A stretch of 60,992 bases of DNA, filler included. It is 8 parts of 8 records of this genome, joined end to end, with 100 filler letters (N's around TTAATTAATTAA, not from the genome) between each part and the next. Parts side by side here need not be neighbours in the genome. Positions count along the whole stretch, not along the records: positions 11,819 to 30,133 come from SRR20825015_525; 7 more parts are not named here. One strand, 5' to 3'. The notes under the pieces are model-generated. The model saw only the letters and a program-made list of their open reading frames with translations. It did no database searches and was not told the origin of the DNA. Made by a program: the position numbers and the translations under genes. Below are positions 4,381-38,624 of the stretch, in pieces (the first letter of the stretch is position 1; each line of letters starts with the position of its first letter).

Positions 4381-5132
4381 GTATCCTCGAACTCAGGGGC
4401 CTGACCCAGCGCTTTGGCGGGTTGACGGCGGTGAATAATGTCGACCTTTCGGTGGAGCCGGGCGAAATCGTCGGCCTGATCGGGCCCAACGGAGCGGGCA
4501 AGACCACGGTCGTCAATCTGGTCACCGGGGTCTTCAAGCCCACAAGCGGCAGCGTCACCTATGACGGTCGCCGTATCGACGGGATGAAGCCTTACCAGAT
4601 CAGTCGGCTCGGCGTGGCGCGGACCTATCAGGTCGTCCAGCCATTTCCCGAGATGACGGTGCTTGAAAATGTGATGGCGCCGGCGATTTTCGCTGCGGGC
4701 GCATCCTCGACGAGCGAGGCAATGCATGCCGCCGACGAGGCGATTGAATTCCTCGGGCTGAAACAGCATCGCGATACGCCTGCAAGCGAACTGACCCTTG
4801 CCGGCCGCAAGCGGCTGGAACTGGCCAAGAGCCTGGCGATGAAGCCAAAGGTCCTGCTGCTCGACGAGGTCAATGCCGGCCTCAACCCGGCGGAGATCGA
4901 GACCGCGCTCGAAATGATCCGGGCGATCGCCGCGCGCGGGGTCACCATCATCCTGATCGAGCATCTGATGAAGGTGGTGATGACGCTCTGCACCCGCATC
5001 GTGGTGCTGCATCACGGCGCCAAGATCGCCGAAGGCCGTCCGGACGAGATCACACAGAATGACAAGGTGATCGAGGCCTATCTCGGCAACCGCTATGCAA
5101 AGGCCAATGCCGGGGAGGCCAGCGATGTCTGA
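4377..5132 (+). CDS. Liv-type ABC ATP-binding protein (LivG-like)
   Basis: Walker A GPNGAGKTT, LLLDE, C-terminal VIEAYLG. Confidence 0.93.
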   Translation: MSILELRGLTQRFGGLTAVNNVDLSVEPGEIVGLIGPNGAGKTTVVNLVTGVFKPTSGSVTYDGRRIDGMKPYQISRLGVARTYQVVQPFPEMTVLENVMAPAIFAAGASSTSEAMHAADEAIEFLGLKQHRDTPASELTLAGRKRLELAKSLAMKPKVLLLDEVNAGLNPAEIETALEMIRAIAARGVTIILIEHLMKVVMTLCTRIVVLHHGAKIAEGRPDEITQNDKVIEAYLGNRYAKANAGEASDV

Positions 5133-5844
5133 TCCACTCTTTCAAATCAAGCAATTGGAAGCCGGCTACGGGGAAATCCGGGTTCTGTGGGGCATCGACC
5201 TTGTGGTCAATGCGGGAGAGATCGTCTGCCTGATCGGCTCCAACGGTGCGGGCAAGACCACTCTGCTGCGCACCGTCTCCGGCCTTCTGCAGCCCACGGC
5301 AGGCAGCATTTCCATCGAAGGCCAGGAACTGGCGGGCGCCGGCTCACGGCAGGTGCTTACGGGCGGCGTCGCCCATGTACCCGAAGGCCGCCGGCTGTTT
5401 CGCACCATGACGGTGAAGGACAACCTGATGATGGGGGCCTATCTCAGGAAGAGGGACATCTCGGTTCACGACGACCTCGACCGCGTCATGACCATGTTCC
5501 CGCGCCTTGCCGAACGCGCGCATCAGGATGCCTCGACGCTTTCGGGCGGCGAGCAGCAGATGTGCGCGATCGGCCGCGGCATCATGAGCCGGCCGAAACT
5601 CCTGATGATCGACGAGCTTTCGCTTGGTCTCGCGCCGCGCGCGGTCGAGCTTTTGAGCGAGTCCCTCATCGAGATCAACAAATCCGGCGTCGCCATTCTG
5701 CTTGTCGAGCAGGACGTGATGACCGCGCTCGACCTTGCCGATCGCGGCTATGTGATCGATCGCGGACGGATCTCCTTTGCAGCCACTTCAGAAGAACTTC
5801 GTCAGGAGCCAGCCGTGCGCGAAGCCTATATCGGCGCGGCCTGA
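5125..5844 (+). CDS. Liv-type ABC ATP-binding protein (LivF-like)
   Basis: GSNGAGKTT, LSGGEQQM, VPEGRRLF. Start ATG 5125 after GGAGG. Confidence 0.93.
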   Translation: MSDPLFQIKQLEAGYGEIRVLWGIDLVVNAGEIVCLIGSNGAGKTTLLRTVSGLLQPTAGSISIEGQELAGAGSRQVLTGGVAHVPEGRRLFRTMTVKDNLMMGAYLRKRDISVHDDLDRVMTMFPRLAERAHQDASTLSGGEQQMCAIGRGIMSRPKLLMIDELSLGLAPRAVELLSESLIEINKSGVAILLVEQDVMTALDLADRGYVIDRGRISFAATSEELRQEPAVREAYIGAA

Positions 5845-5871
5845 CAAGCAGAAATACAGAAAGCAAATCCG

Positions 5872-7350
5872 ATGAATGCCTCTCAAAACACCGATACACA
5901 GCAAGACGCAATCCTGTCGCCGTATGACGGCAGCGTTGTCGGCCACATGCCGGTTTCGAAGGATGCCGATATCGAGCAAGCTATCCTGACCGCCCAAAAG
6001 GGCTTCGACGTGATGCGCAAGCTGCCGCGTTTTGTGCGCGCCGATATTCTGGGCCGCACCGCCGACCTGATCGAGGCGCGCAAGGACGAGTTCGTCCGCC
6101 TTATCGCGGCGGAAGCGGGAAAGCCGCTCTATGACGCGCGCGGCGAGATCTCCCGGTCGCTTCTGAACCTGCGCGGCGCCGCGCGCGAGGCCCTCGCCTT
6201 CGGTGGTCAGGAAGTACCGCTGGATATCGATGGCGCCGTGTTCGAGTATCAGACGGCATCGGCCGATGGCAGTCCGCTCGATCTCTCCAAGGCCGATCTG
6301 GCCACCCTGAACGGCCTCGGCCGGCGCATCGGCCTTGCCCGCAGGTTTCCGATCGGGCCGATCCTTGCGATCACCCCGTTCAATTTCCCGCTGAACCTCG
6401 TGCTGCACAAGCTGGCGCCGGCCTTTGCCGTCGGCAATTCCGTGATCCTCAAACCGGCCCCGCAAACGCCGCTGACCAGCAGGCTTCTGGCAGAGGTCCT
6501 GTATGAGGCTGGTCTGCCGCAAGAGGCGCTGAGCGTGGTCCATTGCGACGTGCCGCTGGCGGAAAAGCTTGTGCGCGACGACCGCATTGCCATGGTCACC
6601 TTTACCGGCAGCGTTCCCGTCGGCTGGCATATCAAGTCACTGAGCGGCAAGAAGAAGGTCTCACTCGAGCTTGGCGGCAATGGCGCGGTTGTCGTCTCCG
6701 AAGATGCCGATATTGCCTTTGCCGCGGCGCGCTGCGTGCGTGGCGGCGTGGTCTATGGCGGCCAGTATTGCATTGGCGTCCAGCGCATTTTCGTGCACGA
6801 AAAGGTCTATGACGCTTTCGAGAAGGAACTGGTCAGCCGGGTCGAGGCCTGCAAGGTCGGCAATCCGATGGAAGAAGGGGTCGATGTCGGTCCGGTCATC
6901 GACGAGCGCTCGGCAATGCGTATCGAAAGCTGGATCAGGGAAGCCGTCGACCAGGGCGCGCGCATCCTGACCGGGGGCACCCGCGACCGGGCCGTCGTCA
7001 TGCCGACGGTTCTGACCGACACCAAACCCGACATGAAGGTCGAGGCGGAGGAAATCTTCGGTCCGGTCTTGACGCTGACGAAAGTGAAGGACGCGGAGGA
7101 AGGCGTCCGTCGCGCCGCAGACAGCCGGTTCGGCCTTCAGGGCGGGTTTTTCACGAATGACATGAAGGCAGCCTTCCGGGCGCTCGAGGACTGGGATGTC
7201 GGAGCGCTGATGATCAATGATGTGCCGATCTACCGTATCGACACCATGCCCTTTGGCGGCTGGAAGGATTCCGGGCTCGGGCGGGAGGGCACCCGCTATG
7301 CGATGGACAGCATGAGCGACATCAAACTGCTCGTGGTCAATTATGGCTGA
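5872..7350 (+). CDS. NAD(P)-dependent aldehyde dehydrogenase
   Basis: ITPFNFP, FTGS, LELGG (catalytic Glu), GQYC (catalytic Cys), EEIFGP, PFGG.K.SG.GREG. Confidence 0.93.
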   Translation: MNASQNTDTQQDAILSPYDGSVVGHMPVSKDADIEQAILTAQKGFDVMRKLPRFVRADILGRTADLIEARKDEFVRLIAAEAGKPLYDARGEISRSLLNLRGAAREALAFGGQEVPLDIDGAVFEYQTASADGSPLDLSKADLATLNGLGRRIGLARRFPIGPILAITPFNFPLNLVLHKLAPAFAVGNSVILKPAPQTPLTSRLLAEVLYEAGLPQEALSVVHCDVPLAEKLVRDDRIAMVTFTGSVPVGWHIKSLSGKKKVSLELGGNGAVVVSEDADIAFAAARCVRGGVVYGGQYCIGVQRIFVHEKVYDAFEKELVSRVEACKVGNPMEEGVDVGPVIDERSAMRIESWIREAVDQGARILTGGTRDRAVVMPTVLTDTKPDMKVEAEEIFGPVLTLTKVKDAEEGVRRAADSRFGLQGGFFTNDMKAAFRALEDWDVGALMINDVPIYRIDTMPFGGWKDSGLGREGTRYAMDSMSDIKLLVVNYG

Positions 7351-8158
7351 TCGCCGGAAAGTGGCCGTGGCCGGTCTCGGGTCGATCGGCCTGCGGGTCG
7401 CCGCGGCGCTCGATCAGGGGCTCGACGGGCTTGAACTGACGGCGGTTTCTGCCCGCGACCCCGGGGCTGCCGCTGCACGTCTGGCGACATTTCGGAAAAT
7501 TCCCGAAATCCTGCCGCTCGCGGACTTGCCGGACACGGCGGACATTGTCGTGGAGTGTCTGCCCCCGTCAGCTTTCTCCGCGATGGCAGCGCCGATGCTG
7601 CAACACCCGGAAAAGACATTCGTGGTTGCAAGCGTCGGGCAATTGCTGATGACGGAGGGCTTTCTCGATCAGGCGGGCGCGGCGTCCTTGCGCATTCTGG
7701 TGCCATCAGGGGCGATCGCCGGCCTGGACGGGTTGCGGGCTGCCCGCGAGATTGGCCTTGACGCCGTGACGCTGCAGACGCGCAAGCCGCCACATTCCTT
7801 CGGTGCGGTCGTCATGAACGGCGACGGGCCGGTGTCAACCGCAGGGATCGCAGAACCCGTCCGTCTCTTCGCCGGCAATGCCCGGCAATCGATCGCTGCC
7901 TTCCCCAGAAACATCAATGTGGCCGCCACCGTCGCGCTTGCCGGGATCGGGCCGGACAAAACGGCGGTCGAGATCTGGGCCGATCCCGGGATCAGCATGA
8001 ATACCCACGAACTCACCATTCGCTCAAGGGGCGGCACGCTCCGGATCGTCTCGGAGAACCTGCCCGATGACGAAAACCCGAAAAGCAGCGCTATAACCGC
8101 CTACAGCATCATCGCGGCATTGAGGCGAACGGGCGGTTTTCTTTCGGTCGGCTCCTGA
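7343..8158 (+). CDS. L-aspartate dehydrogenase (NadX)-like protein
   Basis: GLGSIG Rossmann motif, PSGAIAGLD, FP.NINVAATVALAG, NPKSS.ITAYS. Confidence 0.85.
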   Translation: MADRRKVAVAGLGSIGLRVAAALDQGLDGLELTAVSARDPGAAAARLATFRKIPEILPLADLPDTADIVVECLPPSAFSAMAAPMLQHPEKTFVVASVGQLLMTEGFLDQAGAASLRILVPSGAIAGLDGLRAAREIGLDAVTLQTRKPPHSFGAVVMNGDGPVSTAGIAEPVRLFAGNARQSIAAFPRNINVAATVALAGIGPDKTAVEIWADPGISMNTHELTIRSRGGTLRIVSENLPDDENPKSSAITAYSIIAALRRTGGFLSVGS

Positions 8159-8170
8159 TGGGGCGCCGGA

Positions 8171-8230
8171 TCTCTTTGTTTTCACGCACGTCCGGACCGA
8201 AAACCGGTATCCACTTTTCGCGGACGCGCT
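8171..8230. repeat. Rhizobiales-type intergenic palindromic repeat (Bru-RS/RIME-like, half element)
   Basis: TCTCTTTGTTTTCACGCACGTCCGGACCGAAAACCGGTATCCACTTTTCGCGGACGCGCT resembles, from recall, the AAAACCGG-N-CCACTTTT repeats of Brucella/Mesorhizobium. Confidence 0.55.
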
Positions 8231-8255
8231 TCAATCAGACAGGAAGGATTTGAGT

Positions 8256-9002
8256 ATGCGGACGAAAACCATGGCGGCAGGCGGTTATCAATACATCCCC
8301 GGCGTGATGCAGTATTCGGCGGGCGTCGGCGCGCTGGACGGCTATCGCATAGTCCGGGCCCGTTTTTTCGATGTCGTGCCGATGAAAGAGGGTTTTGAGC
8401 GCATCGCCCGCCATCTTGGCGAACTTGGCCGGCCGCTCGAGGCATTCTGCGCCTGTGAAATGCGCTCACCCGGCCAGTTTACCGAGGAAGGTTTTGCAAC
8501 CTTCAACACGCGCTATGCCGAAATGCTGCGTGCCTGGAACATCATGGAAGGCGATGACAATCCGGTCGCCCGTTCCAATATCTGCCCCGAAATCGGAGCC
8601 CCGGATGAACCCGGCTTTCATGCCTTCTGCTATACGGTCAAGGACGAAAACGCACCGGAGACATTCGCAATTGCGGGATCAGGCGAGGTGCCGGAAGGGC
8701 AGGAAAACTATCGCGATCATATCGTCCGCCCCGGCGAAACGAGCGCAGATGCCATTCGCGAGAAGGCTGCATTCGTGCTTGATGAAATGGAGCGTCGCAT
8801 GGGTTTCTTCGGCGCGAAATGGGCCGAGACGACCGGGGCGCAGATCTACTCCGTCCATGACATCCATCCGCTGATCGAAACGGAGCTTGCCCCGCGCGGC
8901 GTCCACCGCAACGGGCTCGCATGGCACTATAACCGCCCGCCGATCGTTGGATTGGAATATGAGATGGATTGCCGCCGGATCTTCGACGAAATCATCCTGT
9001 GA
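8256..9002 (+). CDS. CnbZ-like (2-amino-5-chloromuconate deaminase family) protein
   Basis: GGYQYIPGVMQYSAGV, FCACEMRSP.QF..EGF..FN, NPVARSN.CP, RPPI.GLEYEMDCR. Start ATG 8256 after AGGA. Confidence 0.75.
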   Translation: MRTKTMAAGGYQYIPGVMQYSAGVGALDGYRIVRARFFDVVPMKEGFERIARHLGELGRPLEAFCACEMRSPGQFTEEGFATFNTRYAEMLRAWNIMEGDDNPVARSNICPEIGAPDEPGFHAFCYTVKDENAPETFAIAGSGEVPEGQENYRDHIVRPGETSADAIREKAAFVLDEMERRMGFFGAKWAETTGAQIYSVHDIHPLIETELAPRGVHRNGLAWHYNRPPIVGLEYEMDCRRIFDEIIL

Positions 9003-9049
9003 TACCAACCCCGAATTGATCATCCGGATTTGGCATCATGCCTTCAAGG

Positions 9050-9121
9050 TGGCCGGCTATTGATCGGAATCATGGCCGGCTTCAAATCGGAATACCCGGC
9101 CGGCTAACTTCGGAATTCGCA
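9050..9121. mobile_element. Orphan IS21-family terminal repeat region
   Basis: Three TCGGAAT repeats at 23-bp spacing (9064, 9087, 9110) ending in CGCA; reverse strand reads TGCGAATTCCG..., typical of IS21 ends. No istAB present. Confidence 0.6.
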
Positions 9122-9136
9122 GGCCGATGCTCAAAC

Positions 9137-9485
9137 TCAACCACCGAGAACCAAATTGACCAGTTCGCCTTCCCAACGTTGAGTGGAGTATTGTTGTTCA
9201 AGGCGAGCGCGTCCGGCAGTGCCCATTTTCTGTCTCAGATCCGGTTCATTTACTAACCGCGACAGGTAATTTCGCCAATCGGGTTCATCATGCGCGAGGA
9301 AACCGGTGACGCCGTGGCCGACTTTTGCGCCGCCGATCTCAACCCAAGCGCTCGAGATCGGCAGCGGCAGCATCGTGGGGCACGAGCACGGTAATGCGAT
9401 GCCCGTCCTCCATCAGAGCTTCGACAAGAGATCGCCTGAAATTCCAGATATTCCAGACGGCATTCACCGTCATCAGAACATGCAT
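9137..9485 (-). pseudogene. Glycosyltransferase family 4 remnant (N- and C-terminal pieces, middle missing)
   Basis: 9485-9339 reads MHVLMTVNAVWNIWNFRRSLVEALMEDGHRITVLVP...*. A different frame gives VGHGVTGFLA..LSRLVNEPDLRQKMGTAGRARLEQQYS. Confidence 0.7.
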
Positions 9486-9672
9486 GAACCGCCTCGCCGA
9501 ATTGCACACCATCAGTGTAAGCGCTTTTAGCTATTTGACTGATAGAAGTGAAGTGGCTCGGCTTTGTGCTCTGTGAGATCTGCATCCGAACTGTCCTCCA
9601 GCCGGGGAAAACGCGGAAAGCTCCGACAGAAAACGGCCCAGTTTTCATGGCGCAGAGCAGGGGTAGGGCAAA

Positions 9673-9723
9673 ATGTATGGACGAGCAAAACTCGATCTGT
9701 TGCAGGCGCGATTGATTGATGCA
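9673..9723 (+). mobile_element. ISL3-family transposase C-terminal fragment
   Basis: MYGRAKLDLLQARL, characteristic ISL3 C-terminus. Confidence 0.6.
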
Positions 9724-9814
9724 TCAGCTTCTCGGCGGCAAAGCCGGTCATCTCGCGAAGCAAATCGGCATCAGTGCTCTTCTCAACAAGCGAGCGCAGG
9801 TTCATCATATCGTC
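9722..9814 (-). mobile_element. IS256-family transposase N-terminal fragment
   Basis: DDMMNLRSLVEKSTDADLLREMTGFAAEKLM, characteristic of alphaproteobacterial IS256 starts. Confidence 0.65.
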
Positions 9815-10001
9815 GGGCTGACGGGCCCAGCCCGACGAAGCGCCTCATCAGCCAACGAGGATATCGGTGGCCCGCGCACAATCCGGCGATCCTATCAACG
9901 CTATCAGGGAGCGCCGGCAGACCGGAACCCGTTCGACAGCCTTTCATTCCGGGAAAACCGTCACCCGACGTCCGCCATTCCCGGTCGGGCGGTTCGACCA
10001 G

Positions 10002-11718
10002 CTATTCGACCACCGCCGCATCACTGTCCTTGCGCCCTTTTCCAAACAGCCTCAGGATACCGCGCACGACATCGTCGATCAGCGTGTAGATCACCGGAAT
10101 GACCAGCAGGCTGAGCATGGTCGAGGTGATCAGCCCGCCGATGACGACGACGGCCATGGGCTGGCGGAAGCTCGGATCGCCCTCCACGAGGCTGAGCGCG
10201 GCTGGCAGCATGCCGGCCGACATGGCGACGGTGGTCATGATGATCGGCCGTGCCCGCTTGTGGCAGGCATCGACGATGGCTTCGAACCGCGCCATGCCAT
10301 GGCGCCGGGCCTCGATCGCGTATTCCACCAGCAGGATCGAGTTCTTCGAGACGATGCCCATCAGCAACAGCAGGCCGATCACCGCCGGCATCGAGAAACT
10401 CGTCCCGGTGATCACCAGCGGAAACAGCGCGCCGCCGAGCGCCAGCGGCAGGGCCATCAGGATGGTGATCGGCTGGAGGAAGTCGTGGAACAGCAGGACC
10501 AGCACGGCATAGACGCAGAAAATGCCGATCGCCATCGCCGTGGCGAAGCTTTGGAACAGCTCGGTCTGACGCTTCAGGTCGCCCTGTTCGACGAATGTGA
10601 CGCCGGCCGGAAGGTTCCGGTAGCTGTCGAGCTGCTGGGCTTCCCGGTTGACATCGGAGAGATTGCGGCCGTTGAGTTCGATCGTGACGGTCACATTGCG
10701 CGAGCGGTCGAGCCGGTCGATTTCGCTGGGCGCCGCGCCGATGGAAATGTCGGCGATCGTTCCAAGCGTGACATTGCCGTCTGTCCCTGCCACGGGAATG
10801 AGGCCGATCTGGTCCAGCGACTGGCGCGCGCGCTCTGCGAGCAGAACGCGGATATCCAGTTGCCGCTCCGGCAGGTTCAGATGCGACAGCGCCGAATCGT
10901 AGGCCCCCGCAGTCGCCACCCGGATCGCGTCCGAGATCGCCTGCGAGGTCACCCCATAGGAGGCGGCCTTCGCAAGATCCGGCGTGATGACGATTTCCGG
11001 CGACTGAAGGGCAGCGGATGAGGTGACATTGCCGATGCCCTGAATATTGGCGCGGATATCCTCTTCCAGCTGCGCGGCTGCGGACTCCAGCGTATCGGAA
11101 TTGTCGCCGGCAAGCGTCAGTTGCAGCTCGGTTCCGTTTCCGCCGCCGCCGATCTCGATCCGGGCCCCGGGAATGCCGTCGACCGCCTCGCGGATGTCGC
11201 TCTCGATCTCCGTCTGGGTCACGTCGCGGTCATCGATATTGGTCAGGTTGACGACCAGGGTGGCCGAGGTGACGGAATCGGAATCGCCGCTGCCGCCGCC
11301 CATGCCGCCGGTCGAAGCGCTGCCGGTCGCCTGGAAGATGCCGGTGACATGGTCGACCCCGGCGGCAAGGCTCGCAGCCTTCTTCGCGACGGCGTCGGTC
11401 TGTTCGATGGTCGAGCCGGGCGTCGTCGTGATCGATATCTGTGTCTGGCTGTCGTCGGAGGCCGGGAAGAAGCCGGTCGACAGATTGCCCATCAAGAGGA
11501 CGGTCGCCGCGAAGAACAGGATGACGCCGAGGACCGGGATCCACCGCCGCCGCAACTCGCCGCGCACGACCGCAATATAGCGGCGCATCAGCCAGCCGTC
11601 CCCGGACTTTGTCTTCGACGGCGTCTTCATCATATAGGCCGCCATCATCGGCGTCACGAAACGGGCGACGAGCAGCGAGCAGAGGACCGCGACCGAGGCG
11701 GTGATGCCGAACTGCTTG
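10002..11718 (-). CDS. RND efflux permease (AcrB/AcrD/AcrF family), 5' truncated by contig end
   Basis: GIVSKNSILLVE, RARPIIMTT, VVVIGGLITST.LSL.VIPV.Y. Frame stays open to the contig edge. Confidence 0.92.
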
Positions 11719-17504: not shown

Positions 17505-17650
17505 CATGGGGCGGGCCCGATATTAGGTGTTGCTTGTGGGCGCTAGATTTTAATGAAATTTAAAATTGGAAGATTGAAAGTGACTTAAAATTATTGCTCT
17601 GTTGGAAATGAGTATGTCGTTTCCCTGTTATTATCTTTGGAATTTTTGGA

Positions 17651-18379
17651 ATGCGTATCCGGCCTACCCGTAGCCTTGGGTTGTTTTTTATTTTGCTGGT
17701 CTTGTCGGCTTGTTCTTCTCGCCCGGAGTCGGGTTTCAAGAACCCAATAGGCGCCGATAAAGCTTACGTAGTCATCGGAACTGGGTATCGCGATGGTGGG
17801 GCCTTGGACATCTCGGGCATAGAGAATATTAAAATTCTTAATGGTCCGCTTAAGTTACAGTCAAATTTTTATCCTCAGTCGTCTATCGAGTTCCGACGGT
17901 TCGATCCGGAAACAGGTGAAAGTATCCGGAGGCCTGTATTAACTGCAAATGATCCAAATGGTATCTTTGCAGCCGTTGGTCTGGAACAATCAAAAATGAT
18001 TTCAGAGACTAACCATTCAAATTATAACAAGACTGTATATTGGTTGGTTGAGGTGAATGCAGGTAGGTTTCATTTAAACTATCAGATTTTTCATAAGGGA
18101 AATAAAAGAACTTATATTCATGCGTTAAAAAATAAAGTTCTCATAGAGGGGTTGCCTGTTTTTGACGTGGCTCCAGGAGATGTTGCCTATATTGGTGATT
18201 GGCTGGTGGCTCAGGGGATTTATCTGGCGATGAAGTATCCAGATCGATTTGGTGATCTTGAACTGAACAAGCTTTACCTTGCTCATACAGTGAATTTCGA
18301 AAGGATGAGCACGGCAATGGCAGGGCAAGGTGACCTGTCTAAAATTAGAACTGTGCCAATTCACCGATTTACGCATTGA
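17651..18379 (+). CDS. Hypothetical lipoprotein (AT-rich)
   Basis: Signal peptide with lipobox LSAC; base composition visibly AT-richer than flanks. Confidence 0.72.
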   Translation: MRIRPTRSLGLFFILLVLSACSSRPESGFKNPIGADKAYVVIGTGYRDGGALDISGIENIKILNGPLKLQSNFYPQSSIEFRRFDPETGESIRRPVLTANDPNGIFAAVGLEQSKMISETNHSNYNKTVYWLVEVNAGRFHLNYQIFHKGNKRTYIHALKNKVLIEGLPVFDVAPGDVAYIGDWLVAQGIYLAMKYPDRFGDLELNKLYLAHTVNFERMSTAMAGQGDLSKIRTVPIHRFTH

Positions 18380-18387
18380 TTCGGATC

Positions 18388-18462
18388 AGGCTGACGCCGG
18401 TTGCCCCGCTGCGTAACATGATGGGGCAGACCCGGCACGACCACACGTGCCAATCGTGTCAT
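18388..18462 (-). pseudogene. RAYT-type (Y1/HUH) tyrosine transposase, N-terminal 25-codon remnant
   Basis: MTRLARVVVPGLPHHVTQRGNRRQP, the canonical RAYT/Y1_Tnp start. Confidence 0.85.
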
Positions 18463-18489: not shown

Positions 18490-18516
18490 GAATTGAGGCG
18501 TGTGTCCCTTTAATTC
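18490..18516 (-). repeat. 27-bp GGGGACA-type hairpin motif, copy A
   Basis: Minus strand GAATTAAAGGGACACACGCCTCAATTC, 27 bp upstream of the RAYT ATG. Confidence 0.85.
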
Positions 18517-18519
18517 CCC

Positions 18520-18549
18520 TATGCAAGTGAAGGGATGCGGGAACGATGA
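18520..18549 (+). pseudogene. hlyD 3' tail fragment (YASEGMRER*), copy 1
   Basis: 28/30 identical to 19783-19812; both differences are synonymous. Confidence 0.8.
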
Positions 18550-19394
18550 ATATAAAAGAAGAAAAAGTAAAAATATCCACATTGCCACCTTTTCTCACTA
18601 TATTTCCTGCGCGAAAATTAGTTCAAGGTAGCGAAGAACCAATAAAGTCGTGGAAATTACGATCTATTTTTTTATGCTATTTTTTAACAACTGTTGCATT
18701 TATTGACTATCCAGCAATATCAAATAATCACCTAATTATGATGATTCTGTGCGCAATTTTATTCACTACAAGCTATAAAATCAGCTCAAAAATTGTTGAC
18801 ATTAATAGCAATAAAGGAAATTTATTTTTTTCATCTGGTAACTATGGCGATCTTTTGAATGATTTTTTGTTCATATTTATTGCGCTTACACCAGTTATTT
18901 ATGTAGAGGTTTTGGTTTTAATTATTAACCCAAAATTGGCTGAGGGTTTTTTATTGTTTTCAAATATTAAAAATAGCTTACTTATTCATGATGATTTTGA
19001 TAGTAAATATTGGAGTTTATTGGGGGTAGTGAATTATATTATTTTGCAACATATTATTATTACTGTAATTGGGGTATGTTTTGTAATTTTTTCACTGCTT
19101 CGTAATTGCAAAAATATTAAATATAACAAATATGATGTATTTTCAAATATAGTAACGATGCTAACATGTTTAGCAATTACTATTATATCCGTCAAAGCAA
19201 TGTATGAATTATCTTTATGAGAAAGAATAAACACGAATTCGTTAACACGAAGCAGTGCGAGATCCTATATTATGCTGATAGGGCAATTAACATGTTTTCT
19301 TAGTTTCGCGTCTATTTCTGTTGTTTTGTTGTTTCAAAGTATTTCTATCGTGGTGGCTTCAATTTTTTCTGCTCGGGATGAAGTGAATGACTGA
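18546..19394 (+). pseudogene. AT-rich multi-TM hypothetical membrane protein with in-frame TGA at 19218-19220
   Basis: 224-codon hydrophobic ORF. The frame stays open 57 more codons, including a further TM segment, to TGA 19394, overlapping the next ATG at 19387. Confidence 0.6.
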
Positions 19395-19501
19395 TCAAAA
19401 TCAAAACAATAGTAGTTACGATATTGGAGTTGATGTTCACTTGTGGACTGTAAAAATAAATGAACTTCTTGTCGGCCTTGGTTTAGATATTTTTGAAGGG
19501 G
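19387..19501 (+). pseudogene. 5' fragment (38 codons) of the next gene, cut by motif B
   Basis: MTDQNQNNSSYDIGVDVHLW...; translationally coupled start, runs directly into the repeat. Confidence 0.55.
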
Positions 19502-19528
19502 AAATTAAGGGGACACACCATCTAATTG
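19502..19528 (+). repeat. 27-bp motif, copy B
   Basis: AAATTAAGGGGACACACCATCTAATTG. Confidence 0.85.
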
Positions 19529-19574
19529 CGCCGATTGATAGGCCGAGAGAATATGAACCGGTCTTAGACGCCAT

Positions 19575-19601
19575 AAATTAAGTAGTATGTCCCCTTAATT
19601 C
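19575..19601 (-). repeat. 27-bp motif, copy C
   Basis: Minus strand GAATTAAGGGGACATACTACTTAATTT. Confidence 0.85.
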
Positions 19602-19812
19602 AACAATAGGCCCGCAGGCAGCCCCGCAAATGCTGTCCTACACGGCGCGGATCGAGATCGAACGGGAACATCTGACTGTGGACGGCAGGGACGTGCGGCT
19701 GGTGCCCGGCATGTCCGTGACGGCGGATCTGCTGACGGGAGAGAGACGGGTGCTGGAATATGTGCTGCAGCCGGTGCTGCGTTATGCAAGTGAAGGGATG
19801 CGAGAGCGATGA
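19602..19812 (+). pseudogene. HlyD-family T1SS membrane fusion protein, C-terminal fragment
   Basis: YTARIEIEREHLTVDGRDVRLVPGMSVTADLLTGERRVLEYVLQPVLRYASEGMRER*; a GC-rich piece inside the AT-rich island. Confidence 0.85.
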
Positions 19813-20666
19813 TAAAAAACATGACTAATAGACGTTGTTTTGCTTTGTTTTTGCTTAACATAAGTTGTTTTATTGCTGTTATTTTGTTGGGAATTTTGAC
19901 TTCTAAGTCCTCATTCGCTCAATACATATTAGCTCAGAGTGAAGCATCTATTGATTACGAAGAATTTAAATTGAAATCAATGAAAAATATAAAAGAAGAT
20001 TTATTTCGATCTATTGTTGAATCTATTCGGGCAAAACTTATTGTCGACAATAATGTAGAGTTAAAAATAAGAAGTTATGGTGGGGATATTTTTTTCCGAA
20101 AGCATTATTCAAGTAATGTAGACAAAAATACAGCGATGAAAATTTCTTCTCAATTAAATCGATATGAAAAAATTCTTGATAAGAAATTTGTTGAAAAGAC
20201 GTTCAAAGAATTGAAAAATATGAATGTTTCTTATTTTACTTTTCTTTTTATGAGTAAGGATGATTACTATAAAATAAGTAATTTATATAAATCAGACGGA
20301 ATTAATATTGAGATAGATAATATGAAATCATTTCCGTGCACAGTTAAGAAATTTTCTTACGGTAATGACTTCATAAAACAAACTATGATGGTAGTTGTAG
20401 ATACAGGGGATTCCGTTGTTATTGACAACTGTATTGATAATGTTTTGTTCTATGCCTTTTATCCGGGGCAGTTGTTGGGGTTTATTGGGGGGGAAGGGGG
20501 CAGATATTTGATGGGAGTTCAAGATTTATTTAATATACGAGCGCTTTATGATGATAGGATGCCGTTCAAAATGGAGAAAATTGAAAATAACAGACATATG
20601 GATGTAATTATCAAAGAAACAAAATCTTGGTTAATCTCATGTTACGAAAACAATAAGTGTAAATAA
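19809..20666 (+). CDS. AT-rich hypothetical protein with N-terminal TM or signal segment
   Basis: 285-aa open frame, ATGA-coupled to the hlyD tail. Confidence 0.75.
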   Translation: MIKNMTNRRCFALFLLNISCFIAVILLGILTSKSSFAQYILAQSEASIDYEEFKLKSMKNIKEDLFRSIVESIRAKLIVDNNVELKIRSYGGDIFFRKHYSSNVDKNTAMKISSQLNRYEKILDKKFVEKTFKELKNMNVSYFTFLFMSKDDYYKISNLYKSDGINIEIDNMKSFPCTVKKFSYGNDFIKQTMMVVVDTGDSVVIDNCIDNVLFYAFYPGQLLGFIGGEGGRYLMGVQDLFNIRALYDDRMPFKMEKIENNRHMDVIIKETKSWLISCYENNKCK

Positions 20667-20675
20667 GGAGAAATT

Positions 20676-20730
20676 ATGTCAGGAATTTATAGTTCTAATT
20701 ATCCGTACAATAACTCTATTGATTTCACGT
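20676..20730 (+). pseudogene. 5' fragment (18 codons) of the next gene, cut by motif D
   Basis: Strong RBS TAAGGAG then MSGIYSSNYPYNNSIDFT; the stop is formed at the junction with the repeat. Confidence 0.55.
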
Positions 20731-20757
20731 AAATTAAGGGGACACACACCTTAATTC
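20731..20757 (+). repeat. 27-bp motif, copy D
   Basis: AAATTAAGGGGACACACACCTTAATTC, 6 bp past the RAYT stop codon. Confidence 0.85.
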
Positions 20758-20763: not shown

Positions 20764-21086
20764 TTACGACGGCTCTGTCGTGTCCGCCTTCGGGCCCGGT
20801 TTACGCTTTCTGAGAAGCCTTCCGAGCCGACGCTCAAGGTTCTTCAGGAATTCCTCGTCTCCCAATGGCCGTCCCGTTCTTTCATGCATCCGGATCAACT
20901 CCTCCTGCTCCAGCGATACGCCGCCATCAAGAAACCGCCGCCAATCCCCGATCATATCCGGCAAGTCTGGCGCAAGGATGCGATCGGCGGCTGCCTGCTT
21001 CTCCGGAACGAGGCCGAGATGGGCACGGGCGCTTGACCAGGGCCAGTCCTCAGGCCATCCAGCGAGCCGACGTCCACGCGGTTCAG
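20764..21086 (-). pseudogene. RAYT-type tyrosine transposase, C-terminal remnant (frameshifted)
   Basis: LNRVDVGSLD/fs/PEDWPWSSARAHLG...DWRRFL...IRMHERTGRPLGDEEFLKNLERRLGRLLRKRKPGPK. HUH motif and catalytic Tyr are absent. Confidence 0.85.
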
Positions 21087-21411
21087 TGAGCGACCATCAA
21101 TCAGCAGAATTCCGGCAGTAACTGCACCAGTACGGAGAAGGGCTACAGCAATTCTTCGGCCGGGCCGCTTACCCATGATGGTTGTACGGCGGCAAAGGCG
21201 GACGCGCGGCGTAAACTTTCCGCCCGGGTTCAGCAGAGCTGTCAGCCCTATATCCAGAGCAATGCGCCATGCTCGGTCATCAACATTAATAGCTGCACCT
21301 GATCCGTATCCGGGAGGGCGCTCCGTGCTTTTCTGAACGGCCTCGGCCTACGCAACCGTTTCCGGCTGTAGTGGTTGGATCTGGATGGTGACTCTCATAT
21401 CCAATTAAGGT

Positions 21412-29559: not shown

Positions 29560-30133
29560 ATGCATGATGACCGACTGATCGAAGTCGACGATCTTCGGGT
29601 TCACTTTCCGCTTGATGACCAGACGGTCAAGGCGGTTGATGGGGTCTCCTGGCATATTGACCGGGGCGAGACGCTGGCTGTTGTCGGTGAATCGGGGTCC
29701 GGTAAGTCCGTGACGGCGATGTCGCTGATGCGACTGACCGATTACGCCGGCGGGCATATTGCGTCCGGCAAGGTCGATTTCCGGCGCAAGAACGGTGAGG
29801 TGATTGATATCGCCGGTGCCGATCAGGGCACGATGCGAAATATTCGCGGCAACGATATTTCGATGATCTTCCAGGAGCCGATGACCTCTCTCAACCCGGT
29901 CTTCACTATCGGGTTCCAGATCGCCGAGACCATCATGCTGCACCAGGGCAAGAGCGAGCAGGAAGCGCTCGACATGGCTCTGGAGATGCTGAAGCTGGTG
30001 CGTATTCCGGAACCGGAAAAGCAGCTGACCCAGTATCCGCACCAGTTGTCCGGCGGTATGCGTCAGCGGGTGATGATCGCGATGGCGCTGAGCTGCCGTC
30101 CGAGCCTGCTGATCGCCGACGAGCCGACCACCG
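29560..30133 (+). CDS. Dipeptide/oligopeptide ABC ATP-binding protein, 3' truncated
   Basis: GESGSGKS, MIFQEPMTSLNP, YPHQLSGGMRQR. Confidence 0.92.
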
Positions 30134-30671
30134 NNNNNNNNNNNNNNNNNNNNNNNNNNNNNNNNNNNNNNNNNNNNTTAATTAATTAANNNNNNNNNNN
30201 NNNNNNNNNNNNNNNNNNNNNNNNNNNNNNNNNACGTTCATCAAGGTTGTCTCTGTGTGAGACCTAACTTGGGAAGTTCTGTGAAGAGTGTCTGTGTGAT
30301 ATAGTTGAAACGTTTATGTGGAATCACGAGCAGGACGTAGCGTTGTGGAAGTTGAGGTCGTGGAGTGCTAAGGATTGGGAGTACCTGTTTGGAGTCGAGA
30401 GCCCTGTGCTCGCTGTGTCGCCCGTCTTCGATACCTACGACTAGTCATCCAGCGGAGAAGCAAATCAAGAACGTCTTGCGTGCACATTAGAAAGCAAGAA
30501 CAACAGCAAAAATATCAGGAAAAAAAAAACAACAACCACAAAAAGAACAACACTGCAAATCTTGACAGAAGAAAATGATATCAGTGGCCGCTTCAAGAAA
30601 ATTTTCCGTAAGTGGCTTTTCCTCTCCCTCTAAATGCTGTGACAATACGCTAACGTGGATGCAACCCCTTC

Positions 30672-32123
30672 ATGCAGACTGTCCTCGGTGGTGGTATGGC
30701 CGTCGCCAAACGAATTCTCCGAGTCTCGCCGTTTGCTGCTGGATTTGACCATGTCCTTCCAGCACACCGCTTGGACTCCAGGAAAGCAATCCAAGTAGAA
30801 GCTCGAGAGCCACACTTTGGGGCAAGCCTCCACTTCCAAGACTGCGCCGAAAGAAAGGCTTTCAGCCCCCACAGCAGTTCCCAGTGCGAACAGCCCATCG
30901 TGTCCGCCAAGGTTGTGAGCGGAGAGAAAGTACTTGTTCAGTGGGAAGATGGTGCGCTTGGAGAGTTTCACTCCCTTTGGCTTCGCGATTGCTGCCGATG
31001 CTCACAATGCTTCCACCCTCAAGCGCTGGAGCGAGTAGTTGACACTGTCAACATCCCCCTGGACGTCCATCCCGTCAACCTGTCCATCAACGAAGATGGA
31101 TTCCTCTCCATCACCTGGGATCGTGGTCAGAACTACCACACTAGCACCTTTGATGCCGATTGGCTTCGCGACAACTGTTACTCCTTTGTCAGAGTGTCTG
31201 ACGAGCAGGCCGTTCAGGACGCGCTGAGTGGTAAGGTGGATCCTATTCCGTGGGGATCTGAGATCGGATCCAACCTCCCAAAGCTCCGATGGGACAACAT
31301 CATGGAGGATGACAAGGGATTGTTGTCTTTCGTCACAACTGTGCAGCGGTACGGGTTCGCCGTCCTTGAAAACGTCCCCATAGAGTCTGGGAATAGTGTC
31401 AAGCTCGCCAAACGTATTGGCTTCCCGAGAGAGACCTTCTGGGGAACTGACTGGGCCGTGAAGTCGGAAATTCAACCAGCCAACCTTTCCCTCACGGGCG
31501 CCCCTCTCCACGGACACACAGACTTTTCCTGGAGCAAACAGCCGCCTGGACTTCAGTTCCTGCACTGCCTCAAGTTTGATGGTGGTCCCGAGGTCGGAGG
31601 CGAGTCCACTTTGATGGATGGGAAGAAAGTGTGCGACGTGTTGAAGCGCGAGAGGCCGGATTACTTCCACCTGTTGGCCACTGTCCCAATCTCCTTCCAG
31701 TTTGCTTCTGCTGATCTGCTCTACGAGCACTCAGCTCCCATGATTGAAGTCGATTCTTCCGGAAATGTTGTGGGAGTGCGTCATAATCACGCCAACCGAG
31801 GGCCCATCAACGCACCCGGCCACTTGATGAAGGACATGTACGCTGCCATTCAGTACTTCTCTCTGCTTCTCCGTGATGCCAGATACGAACTGCGCTTCAG
31901 GTTGCAAGCGGGAGATCTCCTGGTCTTTGACAATAAGAGGCTTCTTCACGGGAGATGTGGCTACGATCCCACCCAGACGTCGCGGCATCTGGAAGGTTGC
32001 TATGTTGACATTGACGAGTTTGAATCCGTGTCAAGAGTCGTCCAGTCTCGTATCGCCAACCGCAGTAGCCAGAAGGTCCAAGGCCTTCCAGCTATTGATG
32101 GGGCTGTGCCCACCCTGCGGTAG
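30672..32123 (+). CDS. Gamma-butyrobetaine/trimethyllysine dioxygenase-like Fe(II)/2OG enzyme (TauD family), eukaryotic
   Basis: WLRDCCRCSQCFH (GBBH N-terminal Zn site), HTD, FDN.RLLHGR. Start uncertain (30672 or 30696). Confidence 0.88.
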   Translation: MQTVLGGGMAVAKRILRVSPFAAGFDHVLPAHRLDSRKAIQVEAREPHFGASLHFQDCAERKAFSPHSSSQCEQPIVSAKVVSGEKVLVQWEDGALGEFHSLWLRDCCRCSQCFHPQALERVVDTVNIPLDVHPVNLSINEDGFLSITWDRGQNYHTSTFDADWLRDNCYSFVRVSDEQAVQDALSGKVDPIPWGSEIGSNLPKLRWDNIMEDDKGLLSFVTTVQRYGFAVLENVPIESGNSVKLAKRIGFPRETFWGTDWAVKSEIQPANLSLTGAPLHGHTDFSWSKQPPGLQFLHCLKFDGGPEVGGESTLMDGKKVCDVLKRERPDYFHLLATVPISFQFASADLLYEHSAPMIEVDSSGNVVGVRHNHANRGPINAPGHLMKDMYAAIQYFSLLLRDARYELRFRLQAGDLLVFDNKRLLHGRCGYDPTQTSRHLEGCYVDIDEFESVSRVVQSRIANRSSQKVQGLPAIDGAVPTLR

Positions 32124-32274
32124 GGTTGGGACGCATGACGCGCGGGGGAGTGAATAAACTTGACCTCACAAACACCTGCTTTCGGTTTCTGTTGTTGACT
32201 GAAGAATTTATTCAAACTTTACGAAAATCAGATATTGAGAGACTATTCTATGCAGGGCTGAGCCGCTTCTCTTT

Positions 32275-33141
32275 CTACTCGTCATAGACATTAGGTCCCT
32301 CGTAGTGAATAACCTCGCCCTTAGCCAACCTCATCTCGATCAGAGAAGTAGGGAATTCATCCGTGTCTCCGAGCTCGAGAAAGCCAACAATCCTGTCATT
32401 GTTCACACCATCGATGAACATGGGGATGCAGGGAAGGGTTCGGATCTAATTGAATACTGTGTTAGAAAAACAATATGCGTTTTTTCTTTGTGTGTTGTCG
32501 ACGTCTTACCCCAAGCTTCTCAACGAAAAACGGGGCTTTGTCGGCATCGATCTTGAGGAAGCGAGTCTCCAGATGCTTCTTGGCAAGTTTGGACAGGTGC
32601 ATGTCAACAATCTTGCAGCGTTCAAAGTCACGATGGTAAAAGTGGACAACGGCGCGTTCACTTCCAGTCACGGACTTGAGAAACTCGTCTTGCTTGATTT
32701 CACTGTAAGAACAAAAGAATGAGCATGAGAATTTGATGTCAACTGGCGAGGAAGTGATATGTGAAACCGCAGATCGACTCACGTATATTCGCCATGACCC
32801 TTAGCCTTCCACTCAGCCTTCTTGTCGTGGGCACGCTTCATTTGCTCCAGTCGAGCTTGTCGGAGCCGAGCGAATTCGAGGTCTTCATCGTCATCGAAGA
32901 GAGGGTCGTCCTCCTCATGGTCAGACATCTCCTTTTCTTCCTTCTCTCTCTCAATCTCCTCTTTGGATTTGGATTGAGAGAACATGGGTCCCTTGTACGA
33001 CGTATCCTTGGCGGGGCCGATGGACTCGCCGTTGACCATTTTCTTGGCCACGTCACGAAGGACGGCATCCTGGACCACAGACTGGGCAGCTTGCGATAGG
33101 AGGTTCTTATCCTTTCCTTGGAGTTTGGTTCTGTCTTGCAT
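32275..33141 (-). CDS. Phosducin-like protein 3 / TXNDC9, three exons (33141-32783, 32702-32510, 32445-32275)
   Basis: GT-AG introns 32703-32782 and 32446-32509 join GHGEYT|EIKQDEFL...VHFY..FERCKIVD.HL..LA.KH.ETRF.KIDA.KAPF.VEKLG|IRTLPC...DRIVGF.ELG in frame. Confidence 0.9.
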
Positions 33142-33531
33142 TGCTCTTGATTTGAATTTTTGTTGTCGGTCGTGGGTTGTTGGTTGCAGGTTGCTGTTGC
33201 GTCAACCTTGGTCTGCGTTTGGGGTCAAACTTGCATTAGCGATTTTTGACTCACAAAGACATTTTTGGCGCGAAGTAGCGGTTATTTTTGTCACGTGACT
33301 ATTAGTTTTTTCTTTCGACCAATGAGGAGCCACCATGTAACAGTAAAATACCTTGAAGTCTAATGGTCTTCACGGACTCGGGCGGTGTGTGTCATGCCCA
33401 CATCAAGTATGGGGAATGCAAGCGACGGCAAACGTGTCCATACAGCCACCCTCCACTGGTATGAGCGCCCAGACACACAGTTACCAACAGTGTTGATGCT
33501 TTCGTCCTCAAAATTCACTTTGCAGAATGCC

Positions 33532-35066
33532 ATGGCGTCTCAGAGTGCTCCCATGTACTATCCCCAAGATGCAGCGGCATACGGTAGGATATGGTTTGAG
33601 AAAGCGTGTGAAGGAATACAGACTCACTAACACTACGTAACATCCAGGGTACCAGCAGATGCCGGGACCAGGTAGAGCCACCCTTCTAAGTGGCACTTTC
33701 AAACAAAACCACTCGTCTACCACGCGTATCCACTAACACCGGCTCCCTTCATTCGCCCTCACCAACACACACCACAACCGATCCACAACCTCAAGTCTGC
33801 AAGTTTGGTTCTTCGTGTAAGTACGGTCCCGGCCAATGTGCTTACTTCCATCCAGAGGCTATGGCATATGCAGACTCCATGTACCAAGCCCAGGTCCAGG
33901 CTCAGCAACAGGCACAGGTTCAAATGATGATGGGCATGGGCATGAGCATGGGCTATACTGGTGGTTACGCATATCATCAGGATCCAGCATTGCAGCATTC
34001 ACACAACCTTGCGAGAGGAGAAGACATGGTCGTGTCTGAGGCTTCTGAACAAGCAGCGCTGGTGGAAGTCCTTGACTATGACGAACAACCACAACTACAG
34101 TCGCCGATCCCTGGGACACATCACGATCCTGAGATTGTTGGCCGTGAGCCAGTGCCCACGAGTGTTAATGAACGTAAGAAGACAGGAGGCAGCGCTTATC
34201 CAAATGTTCAACAAGGGTCAGAGGGGAACGACACCTCTCATCCAGAACAGAGGTATACACAGAATGAAGGAATTGCTTCTCAACGAAACCAGCGCCAAGG
34301 CGACACCACCCACACACTCGTGCAACCTAAGCAATCACCACGCCGGGGAGGAAGCAGAGGCAACAATGGCTCTGCACAAGAGGATAGAATGAGTGATGAA
34401 AATGGTGGGATGAGTGTGGAGCAGAAACAGCAGAGGCGTACTCACCAGTCTACGCACCGACAAGAAGATGGGCAGCGACAGGGACGGAAGGACCGGGAGG
34501 AGACACGACACCCACGACCAGAACAAGCACACGAATCACGAGAAAAGTACCAACACAAACCGGGACCAGACCAATGGGAAAGGCGATCCTCTGGTCGGTC
34601 GGTAGGTCCCACTCGCCGTCTGGACTACTGGACTCGAGACCAACACTGGCACCGCCACAAGTCGACCTCGTCCGACACTCATGGTGGTGGTGGCAACTGG
34701 AAGCTTGCCAATCGACAAACACCAAAACATTCTCGAGGCGGCAGTGGTGTGGGACAGCGGTCGGGTAGCGAACCTGTAGTTCTCACTGAGGAGAATTCGA
34801 ATACGTCCAAAAGTGAGAGCGGAAGTGTCAACGGTACACATGATCGGTCAACACCACCACCATCATCTTCGCGGGCTTCCCCCAAGCAGCCACCTCAAGA
34901 AGGAAAAGATGACGTCCTGGCGGCAGAGGAAAAGGACCGTGCGATCATGGCAGCCCAGGAAGCCGAAAGAGAGAAAGCCAGGCGTGCTAAAGGAAGCAAG
35001 TTTGCCAGTCCTCTGCACAGTAGCAGAGGATCTAGCCGAGGAGGCAACCGATCTCGTGGGCGTTAG
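33532..35066 (+). CDS. Eukaryotic low-complexity protein with one CCCH-type zinc finger; predicted exons 33532-33583, 33648-33671, 33796-35066
   Basis: CKFGSSCKYGPGQCAYFHP; two GT-AG introns, each with a CACTAAC branch point; Q/R/S-rich tail. Confidence 0.6.
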
Positions 35067-35250
35067 TGTCTCTCCGTTTGGCTCTCTTTGTCTGTCTCTT
35101 TGTATGACTTTGTTTGTTTGTCTCTTTGTCTGTCTCTTGTCTGTCTCTTTGTTTGCCTTTGTCGGTTTCTTCATCTCTCTTGGTCTGTCTTTTTCTGTCC
35201 CTTTATCTCTTTTTTGTCTGTCACTTTATCTCTCTCTCTGTTTGTATCTA
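35067..35250. repeat. Pyrimidine-rich low-complexity tract (TCTCT/TTTG units)
   Basis: Visible simple-sequence repeats between convergent eukaryotic genes. Confidence 0.7.
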
Positions 35251-38373: not shown

Positions 38374-38624
38374 TTTCCCAACTATTTCAATGTGAAGGAG
38401 ATCTTCTTGACAATCCTTCGATACCGCAGCTGTAACACACGCGTGAGGATGTTGGATGTTTTAGATGTTTCAGTTTGTGTTTGTGTTTGTGTACTTGTGT
38501 TTGCGTTTGTCTTTTTGTGTGTGCNNNNNNNNNNNNNNNNNNNNNNNNNNNNNNNNNNNNNNNNNNNNTTAATTAATTAANNNNNNNNNNNNNNNNNNNN
38601 NNNNNNNNNNNNNNNNNNNNNNNN

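Follow-up and report, generated by a model that had tools for sequence, protein, structure and literature searches.

Orphan cassettes from a variable type I secretion slot, bounded by REP-like hairpins and linked to a RAYT-like transposase, in Nisaea

Polymorphic toxins accompanied by stores of orphan immunity genes are known for the type V (contact-dependent inhibition, CDI), type VI and type VII secretion systems and for Rhs proteins. In the CDI (cdiA-CT/cdiI) and Rhs systems, low-GC modules of a toxin tip and its immunity gene are found displaced from their loci, often beside mobile-element genes (Zhang et al. 2012, PMC3482391). The available portion of that survey mentions type I secretion systems (T1SS) only as a route for RTX toxins and describes no system such as the one reported here. 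The recombinase-associated acquired interbacterial defence arrays (rAID-1) of Bacteroidales, according to the accessible part of their description, combine a XerD-family tyrosine recombinase with homologues of type VI immunity genes, and those immunity genes have been experimentally tested (bioRxiv 10.1101/471110). Here we describe two AT-rich cassettes at 18,517 to 20,730 of a DNA stretch of 60,992 nucleotides (the window), which we assign to a Nisaea species because its flanking genes are 93-96% identical to some Nisaea loci (family Thalassobaculaceae). Each cassette carries the tail of an hlyD gene, a variable gene and the start of an RTX-type gene, and both would be orphan modules excised from the variable slot of a Nisaea T1SS locus. 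We have high confidence in the structural account given below, which covers the anatomy of the cassettes, their donor, their orphan status, their linkage to hairpins and a transposase, and their polymorphism between strains.

The Nisaea cassettes share with CDI and Rhs orphan modules, as the available part of the survey presents them, a conserved scaffold with a sharply bounded exchangeable end and an adjacent small gene that changes with it. The displaced modules are likewise of low GC content and keep a conserved stub, a toxin-coding fragment and the small gene. They differ in their mirrored polarity, with the variable part N-terminal and the small gene upstream, and in export by T1SS; in addition, the retained stub comes from the neighbouring hlyD instead of the toxin gene, and the orphans lie far from any secretion locus. 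Like rAID-1, within what the accessible text of that report covers, they form low-GC orphan arrays of strain-variable content beside one DNA-breaking enzyme, with repeats between the genes, and they are present in genomes without the matching weapon. In contrast to rAID-1, the enzyme is a Y1 HUH transposase resembling the REP-associated tyrosine transposases (RAYTs; REP, repetitive extragenic palindrome) and comes with hairpin repeats, the genes match no immunity family, the arrays are short (one to three units), and the immunity function is a prediction. Among alphaproteobacterial T1SS substrates, the available parts of the sources describe RTX bacteriocins such as rhizobiocin RzcA, whose mechanism is unknown and for which no immunity gene is named (PMC3034196), and CdzAB/CdzCD/CdzI, a T1SS bacteriocin of Caulobacter (PMC5380434). 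Compared by description only, these resemble the Nisaea substrates as large RTX proteins and are used against other bacteria, whereas for Nisaea we infer an antibacterial role. Glycine/alanine-rich hydrophobic stretches in some Nisaea N-terminal fragments recall glycine-zipper toxins, and the modular N-terminus and orphan cassettes of Nisaea are not described for RTX bacteriocins in the portions of these papers that were accessible. A literature search that left most subscription journals outside its reach found neither a T1SS polymorphic toxin with an upstream immunity gene nor a T1SS orphan array.

The GC content of the 17.5-20.8 kb region is ~37%, compared with ~60% for the whole window. 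A repeat finder located a 30-nt string twice, at 18520-18549 and 19783-19812; the copies have an identical 20-nt core in common and two mismatches (CGG/CGA and GAA/GAG), both synonymous. In both cassettes the TGA of hlyD and the ATG of the next gene overlap as ATGA. Copy 1 of the hlyD tail (18520-18549, plus strand) consists of nine codons and a stop (YASEGMRER*). Copy 2 ends a 5'-truncated hlyD (19601-19812, plus strand), in which tblastn aligned 19609-19809 to residues 494-560 of the HlyD of locus L007 at 95.5% identity, with about three homologous codons upstream; nucleotide homology to other loci begins at 19601-19609. The L007 protein, used as the reference, matches Pfam HlyD_3 and HlyD_D23, and its gene lies 3' of a C39-like/ABC exporter gene. 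The length of the match, the identical core and the close identity of the frame to an intact Nisaea HlyD argue that the repeated tail is not due to chance.

Downstream of these tails, variable gene 1 (18546-19394, plus strand) encodes a multi-pass membrane protein with five hydrophobic segments and is followed by a 38-codon RTX-type gene start (19387-19502, plus strand) that is cut by a hairpin and is 54% identical to its counterpart fragment in locus L004. Variable gene 2 (19809-20666, plus strand) encodes 285 aa that combine a hydrophobic segment at the N-terminus with a DUF2927-like periplasmic domain of predicted metzincin fold without HExxH, and precedes an 18-codon RTX-type gene start (20676-20732, plus strand) whose TAA stop overlaps a hairpin. 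The cassette borders are ~26-nt repeats (18490-18515, 19503-19527, 19576-19600 and 20732-20757) that fold as DNA hairpins: a REP-like hairpin in R orientation at the left border of cassette 1 (GTGTGTCCCTTTAATT, 18490-18519, fold z -2.4), an inverted doublet between the cassettes (L, 48 nt, R; 19503-19600, -14.7 kcal/mol, z -2.7), and a REP-like hairpin in L orientation at the right border of cassette 2 (AATTAAGGGGACACACACCTTAATTC, 20732-20757, -7.3 kcal/mol, z -6.1). An earlier note on this stretch had recognized the two hlyD-tail alleles with their synonymous differences and ATGA coupling, the truncated, coupled third genes at 19387 and 20676, and the dissimilarity of the middle genes (multi-pass versus a single N-terminal segment); the sequence and the repeat finder bear out the alleles, the third genes are as claimed, and the middle genes are unrelated on comparison. 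Its HlyD C-terminus of ~70 codons in cassette 2 is present, with a size refined to about 67-70 codons. Its statement that the middle gene is captured end to end holds for the extent of the gene, but the copy in cassette 1 has an in-frame TGA at 19218-19220.

The note had also proposed a donor locus of the order hlyB, hlyD, variable gene and RTX-like effector with a variable N-terminus, and had suggested the homology search with the hlyD tail that found it: the full T1SS operon was recovered, with a variable gene after hlyD and then an RTX protein. This search, using a 60-residue tail against one genome per species, returned 39 loci, 14 of them from Nisaea. In L007, hlyB (C39-like domain plus ABC) is followed by hlyD (560 aa), an ATGA-coupled variable gene (276 aa, 31% GC) and a giant RTX gene, whose open reading frame (ORF) exceeds 3,053 aa, contains 47 RTX-repeat matches and a Calx-beta domain, and is AT-rich over its first ~1.7 kb. 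The C39-like domain of the exporter has no Cys in its first 56 residues, a feature that we take to mark RTX exporters. A second intact locus, split across contigs, is found in genome G005. Its RTX protein is 43% identical to that of L007 over 2,563 aligned columns starting at residue 306 (G005) and 564 (L007), while the RTX N-termini and the upstream variable genes of the two loci are unrelated. The first 300-560 residues are the sole varying part of the RTX protein between these loci, and the comparison, which covers two intact loci, shows a sharp switch from a conserved scaffold to an unrelated terminus between strains. On the other side of the block, nucleotide similarity of the window to 12 loci ends at the hlyD stop codon (19812-19816). 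Since homology stops at the hlyD stop and resumes within the RTX body, the exchangeable block comprises the variable gene and the RTX N-terminus. A metagenome scan with the tail returned only five near relatives, one of which, L044, is identical to L007 in ORF lengths and N-termini and appears to represent that locus. Among distant HlyD relatives, 24 loci from L015-L039 were examined; hlyD is followed by an AT-rich coupled gene in none of them, and a large RTX ORF lies close by in L027 alone. The donor architecture is confined to Nisaea in this sample.

Five Nisaea genomes were searched whole (G001-G005; G001 is N. denitrificans DSM 18348 and G004 is recorded as a complete chromosome), and only G005 has a full-length cognate hlyD. 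The other four hold only fragments, which start at residue 131, 197, 208 or 344; N. denitrificans DSM 18348 has four orphan cassettes and no intact cognate hlyD. The orphan status that the earlier note proposed is therefore supported for the cassettes in four of the five genomes. The hlyD tail is present in 14 Nisaea loci, no HlyB is found upstream of any cassette examined, and breakpoints in the other Nisaea loci fall at hlyD residues 131, 133, 197, 204, 244, 353, 382, 397, 403, 494 and 508, in addition to the 9-codon stub. Tails within one genome are 88.8-93.9% identical, as diverged as tails between genomes, and are therefore not recent duplicates.

An orphan cassette contains a 5'-truncated hlyD piece, a whole variable gene and 0-211 RTX codons. 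All 17 cassettes that could be tracked to their right end terminate at a REP-like hairpin, located from -5 to +627 nt from the variable-gene stop and no more than 110 nt from it in 12 cases, and the variable ORF is uninterrupted in 16. Hairpins also enclose mini-cassettes (L004 11214-11620 and L013 10444-10600) with hlyD residues 470-544 and 491-533, or ~35 nt of hlyD, which look like products of repeated hairpin-mediated rearrangement. G005 has a cassette copy of the variable gene as well as the copy next to its RTX gene (L084; L085/L086). The two are identical at the start and diverge ~25 codons ahead of the stop, so that the cassette junction may in this case cut into the 3' end of the gene. 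Five cassettes located at different sites (L003 ~9610, L004 ~8830, L006 ~8730, L008 ~9585 and L014 ~9915) share a motif, CACCGCCTAATATTC, at a distance of 66-100 nt upstream from their hlyD breakpoints. These are its only five hits across the five genomes, compared with none for a control pattern. We rejected it as a T1SS operon promoter because it is absent upstream of hlyB in L007 and L001.

The variable genes comprise several unrelated families. The cassette genes are low in GC (26-34%) and co-oriented, and all 17 variable proteins have hydrophobic segments, nine being multi-pass and eight having a single N-terminal segment. The 224-codon ORF of variable gene 1 ends at the in-frame TGA, the frame continuing to 19394; counted with that stop the gene has 282 codons (283 with the final stop), compared with 284 aa for its relative in L004, to which it is weakly similar (23% identity over 200 residues). 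Past the TGA lies a 40-codon tail ORF, whose end is overlapped by the coupled start at 19387. The family of variable gene 2 is rare, with two hits in a search of 5.8 billion clusters and 10 clusters found by a profile search among 1.84 billion representatives. None of its 14 members matches DUF2927 (PF11150) in Pfam, and the link to DUF2927 is a remote one: DUF2927 accounts for 26 of 30 Atlas feature hits, and hhalign (probability 87.9%, E 3e-6) connects the family with a true DUF2927 protein found in the same slot of locus L041. This L041 protein is the sole curated-family match among the variable proteins scanned. The AlphaFold model of variable gene 2 (pLDDT 82, pTM 0.75) resembles metzincin catalytic domains (MMP-12, -9, -2 and -20; Z 8.0-8.6 over 137-145 aligned residues; Foldseek E 1e-3 to 3e-2). 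The HExxHxxGxxH zinc site is absent from the family, in which no His or Glu column is conserved and invariance is limited to four Cys plus F, D and Y. From this model and alignment, we read the product as a probably disulfide-bonded, non-catalytic periplasmic protein. On the RTX side, unrelated variable genes precede unrelated RTX starts, and some short N-terminal fragments are glycine/alanine-rich and hydrophobic; the G005 N-terminus, folded from a single sequence, gave an unusable model (pLDDT 40). Co-variation of the variable gene with the RTX start was found in two pairs, a small sample: L010 and L042, with variable genes 31% and next-gene starts 35% identical, and cassette 1 and L004, in which weakly similar variable genes accompany the similar next-gene starts noted above.

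Close strains hold cassette 1 only, cassette 2 only, or both. Contigs of strains X5 and X9, from two studies, join 18519 to 19783 and so lack cassette 1, the joint falling within the 20-nt core that is identical in both hlyD tails; a contig of strain X8 joins 19498 to 20734 with 52 other letters between and lacks cassette 2. The joints between strains are thus located in the hlyD-tail repeat or at a hairpin. On a larger scale, one chromosomal site is common to the window, L002, L005, L010 and L041 with different cassettes; an ABC1-kinase gene precedes this site, and a 5-formyltetrahydrofolate cyclo-ligase gene lies downstream of it in the window, L010 and L041. L003 and L004 have flanks in common but differ in hlyD breakpoint and variable gene. 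Conversely, the breakpoint is the same with different variable genes in L008 and L014 (codon 384-385) and in L003 and L010 (codon 402). Locus L041 (Nisaea sp. A1-SPW-09; genome G002, C5:497000-511000) has three tandem units at 4185-10266 that come from a different T1SS (HlyD 37-39% identical); the last unit includes an intact transposase gene, and each of the other two a C-terminal transposase fragment. Its two internal junctions, each a transposase C-terminal fragment plus a 127-codon hlyD piece, are near-identical and flank different variable genes. No intact locus of the L041-type HlyD was found in G001-G005 or in the species-representative genomes, which points to acquisition of these cassettes from outside the genomes searched.

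The hairpin motif (GGAATTAAGG...CCTTAATTCC) has four copies in the window and 29 in 14 loci, always directly downstream of a cassette, and occurs only at cassette ends within 312 kb scanned. Allowing up to one mismatch, each genome has 7-18 copies, grouped at a small number of AT-rich cassettes, compared with 0-1 for a control pattern; the hairpin is absent from the intact loci L007 and L001. In L002, one cassette is followed by an intact gene for a 229-aa transposase between inverted hairpins at 10633 and 11394. The enzyme bears an NHVH motif and a YTELNP motif, matches Pfam Y1_Tnp (PF01797, 5e-11, above the cut-off) and reaches 4e-15 and 55.8 bits against NCBIfam REP_Tyr_transpos, below the 80-bit cut-off, so that the HUH-transposase link drawn in the earlier note stands, with the enzyme identified as a RAYT-like Y1 transposase. 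G001, G002, G003 and G005 each have one intact transposase, always adjoining a cassette array, and G004 has only a remnant. The window keeps two remnants, identified by tblastn with the intact L002 enzyme: residues 1-24 at 18391-18462 (minus strand, 83% identity) and residues 119-229 at 20767-21096 (minus strand, 66.7% identity). Residues 25-118, including the NHVH (HUH) motif, are absent from the window. At position 21088, inside the second remnant, related strains have a 12-nt insertion in two sequence versions. The doublet at 19503-19600 occupies the place of the transposase gene in other arrays. In their order, the two remnants are consistent with a tandem series of cassette-hairpin-transposase-hairpin units from which transposase copies were later deleted, and the doublet is the leftover of the middle transposase unit. 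The three-unit array of L041, at the same chromosomal site, displays such an arrangement directly. We rejected insertion of the cassettes into a single transposase gene, which predicts the reverse order of remnants.

The same hairpins bracket AT-rich cargo unrelated to T1SS in N. denitrificans and its relatives (L090 2712-4601, L097 1424-4521 and L091 87-3522), namely an AIPR abortive-infection protein (PF10592, 7e-35), a HATPase_c+DUF4325 protein and an ImmA/IrrE M78 peptidase. The hairpin/transposase system is therefore not specific to T1SS fragments, and this cargo suggests a general set of defence-like genes. In REP/RAYT systems, as far as the available parts of the papers describe them, a Y1 transposase is likewise flanked by inverted palindromic repeats (PMC3116915, PMC3337134, PMC5581495). 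The REPINs of those systems, within the same sources, resemble the doublet at 19503-19600 as inverted repeat pairs folding into a long hairpin. The Nisaea repeats differ in being few and clustered, not abundant, dispersed intergenic REPs. REPs number hundreds of copies per genome. Unlike REP/REPIN-RAYT systems, the Nisaea repeat pairs bracket 1-2 kb of AT-rich coding cargo; our literature search, which did not extend to most subscription journals, found no cargo-carrying REP pairs. Integron cassettes are also promoter-less single-gene units bounded by imperfect palindromes and stacked on a fixed platform next to one recombination enzyme, but the Nisaea arrays have no IntI, attC or attI, and no tyrosine recombinase lies between the flanking core genes. 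Both ends of a cassette correspond to positions in the donor locus that vary from case to case, so a cassette-borne site is not the means of capture.

The first 300-560 residues of the RTX protein are replaced from strain to strain along with the preceding gene for a variable envelope protein, and we propose that this is a mirror image of a polymorphic toxin and its immunity gene: the exchangeable part is N-terminal, as the secretion signal of T1SS substrates is C-terminal, and the small gene lies upstream. Tandem units of cassette, hairpin, transposase and hairpin accumulate at a small number of fixed chromosomal sites, the transposase presumably having a catalytic role in moving them. Transposase copies would decay afterwards, leaving remnants such as those of the window, and recombination, in the conserved hlyD piece as well as at hairpins, would exchange or remove content. 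The N-terminal domains of the RTX proteins would be toxic, and the retained genes would protect the cell envelope from those of other strains. The sharp block borders, the co-variation, the envelope location, the retention without a secretion system and the tight trimming fit immunity, and from this anatomy we give even chances to the retained variable genes being orphan immunity genes, which is the reading that we favour.

Several observations weigh against this immunity reading. Variable gene 1 has a nonsense codon. No variable protein matched an immunity family or, the L041 protein apart, a curated one (nine searched against Pfam and seven against NCBIfam), and Pfam, PDB sequence and homologue searches recognized no toxin domain in the RTX N-termini. 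In 30 loci from 29 other Alphaproteobacteria, the GC content of canonical DUF2927 genes is native and neither an HlyD nor an RTX neighbour lies within 1.5 kb; with ordinary DUF2927 genes lacking a T1SS context, the DUF2927-like fold says nothing on immunity. Among the differences listed between the window and X5, variable gene 2 has at least two synonymous and at least 11 non-synonymous, a pattern that fits relaxed selection as well as diversifying selection. Some hairpin-bounded pieces (L004 11246-11467 and L013 10448-10576) contain only an internal hlyD fragment, so that trimming does not always spare the variable gene. Every cassette was found through its hlyD tail, and the presence of the tail is thus a matter of ascertainment.

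Some of these observations would be expected if the giant RTX protein were a surface adhesin or S-layer-like protein, the variable gene a type-specific accessory for its retention, maturation or folding as a chaperone, and the orphans functionless remains. The size of the RTX proteins, over 3,000 aa, together with their numerous RTX repeats and Calx-beta domain, is adhesin-like; the adhesin LapA is served by the accessory factors LapG and LapD, and the product of variable gene 2 is periplasmic with a protease-like (metzincin) fold. The nonsense codon in cassette 1 and a ratio of non-synonymous to synonymous polymorphism (pN/pS) near 1 among the listed window-X5 differences point the same way. 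However, the variable gene 2 family lacks the HExxH ligands and hence is not a protease, half of the variable genes encode small multi-pass membrane proteins, an architecture that is that of immunity proteins to pore-forming colicins, and an accessory would be useless in the four of five genomes without the T1SS, yet 16 of the 17 ORFs are open and tightly trimmed. We therefore consider this account unlikely. The premature stop would be equally at home if the cassettes were neutral by-products, REP/RAYT elements inserting preferentially into AT-rich DNA like that of the variable slot and causing adjacent deletions and rearrangements whose unselected remains have no function. That the same hairpins bracket unrelated AT-rich cargo (AIPR, HATPase_c+DUF4325 and M78 peptidase), that the window transposase is broken, and that hlyD-only fragments and 35-nt mini-cassettes exist all accord with such an origin. 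Its probability appears low, however, as all 17 cassettes have a right end that spares the variable gene although by our estimate this gene accounts for about one quarter to one third of the AT-rich slot, the divergence of the tails marks them as old copies and still 16 of 17 ORFs are open, and orthologous sites retain a cassette even when its content differs.

The joints of X5 and X9 bear on another proposal, raised in the earlier note, in which the cassettes are silent and their hlyD tail is a homology arm for allele swapping. As we spell it out, a cassette would donate its variable gene and N-terminus to an expressed T1SS locus, by analogy with pilS to pilE variation. Recombination within the hlyD-tail repeat did occur in these contigs, which upholds that part of the proposal; cassette L005 of G005 carries the variable allele of the intact locus (99-100% identical over 167 nt), and equal hlyD breakpoints with different variable genes (L003/L010 and L008/L014) would also be expected of it. 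But an expression locus that could act as recipient is missing from four of the five genomes, no downstream arm exists, the 0-211 variable RTX codons being followed by a hairpin that L007 and L001 lack, and the toxin-like N-terminal part, which would also need to be swapped, is not stored. We regard silent donation as very improbable. Going beyond the immunity reading, a single domesticated RAYT and a few REP hairpins could form a gene-capture platform, a functional analogue of the integron built on single-strand HUH chemistry, that stocks a handful of fixed sites with AT-rich defensive cargo, the commonest being immunity genes from a class of mirror-image T1SS toxins not described before; we offer this as a tentative and somewhat doubtful extension.

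Further features of the window lie beside the two cassettes. GC content falls past the stop of the ABC1-kinase gene at 17504, into an AT-rich cassette 0 (17540-18385, plus strand) that has no hlyD tail and encodes a 242-aa lipoprotein (ORF 17651-18379). Its only Nisaea relatives are GC-rich core genes without hairpins in G003 and G004 (28-30% identity), and it therefore looks like a foreign copy of a resident family; cassette 0 is a different kind of cargo from cassettes 1 and 2. A promoter scan of the window found sites not enriched over shuffles. In L008 the same scan found seven sites compared with 2.2 expected, all within the AT-rich gene and none at the left end. Neither the window region nor L008 had an Rfam match. 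A second region of lower GC content (45-55%) extends over 30000-39000 of the window, where an 880-aa leucine-rich-repeat protein is encoded at 35731-38373 (minus strand) and a 458-aa ORF at 33690-35066 has no Pfam match.

For the family of variable gene 2, these results give a divergent branch of the uncharacterised DUF2927 family a genomic context. The Nisaea system bears on whether giant RTX proteins serve as modular antibacterial weapons and on whether RAYT/REP elements can carry cargo, and the locus offers a concrete, testable model in a marine genus that is culturable and non-pathogenic. The reading as a capture platform, if true, would give RAYTs a cellular function and would add T1SS to the secretion routes of polymorphic toxins.

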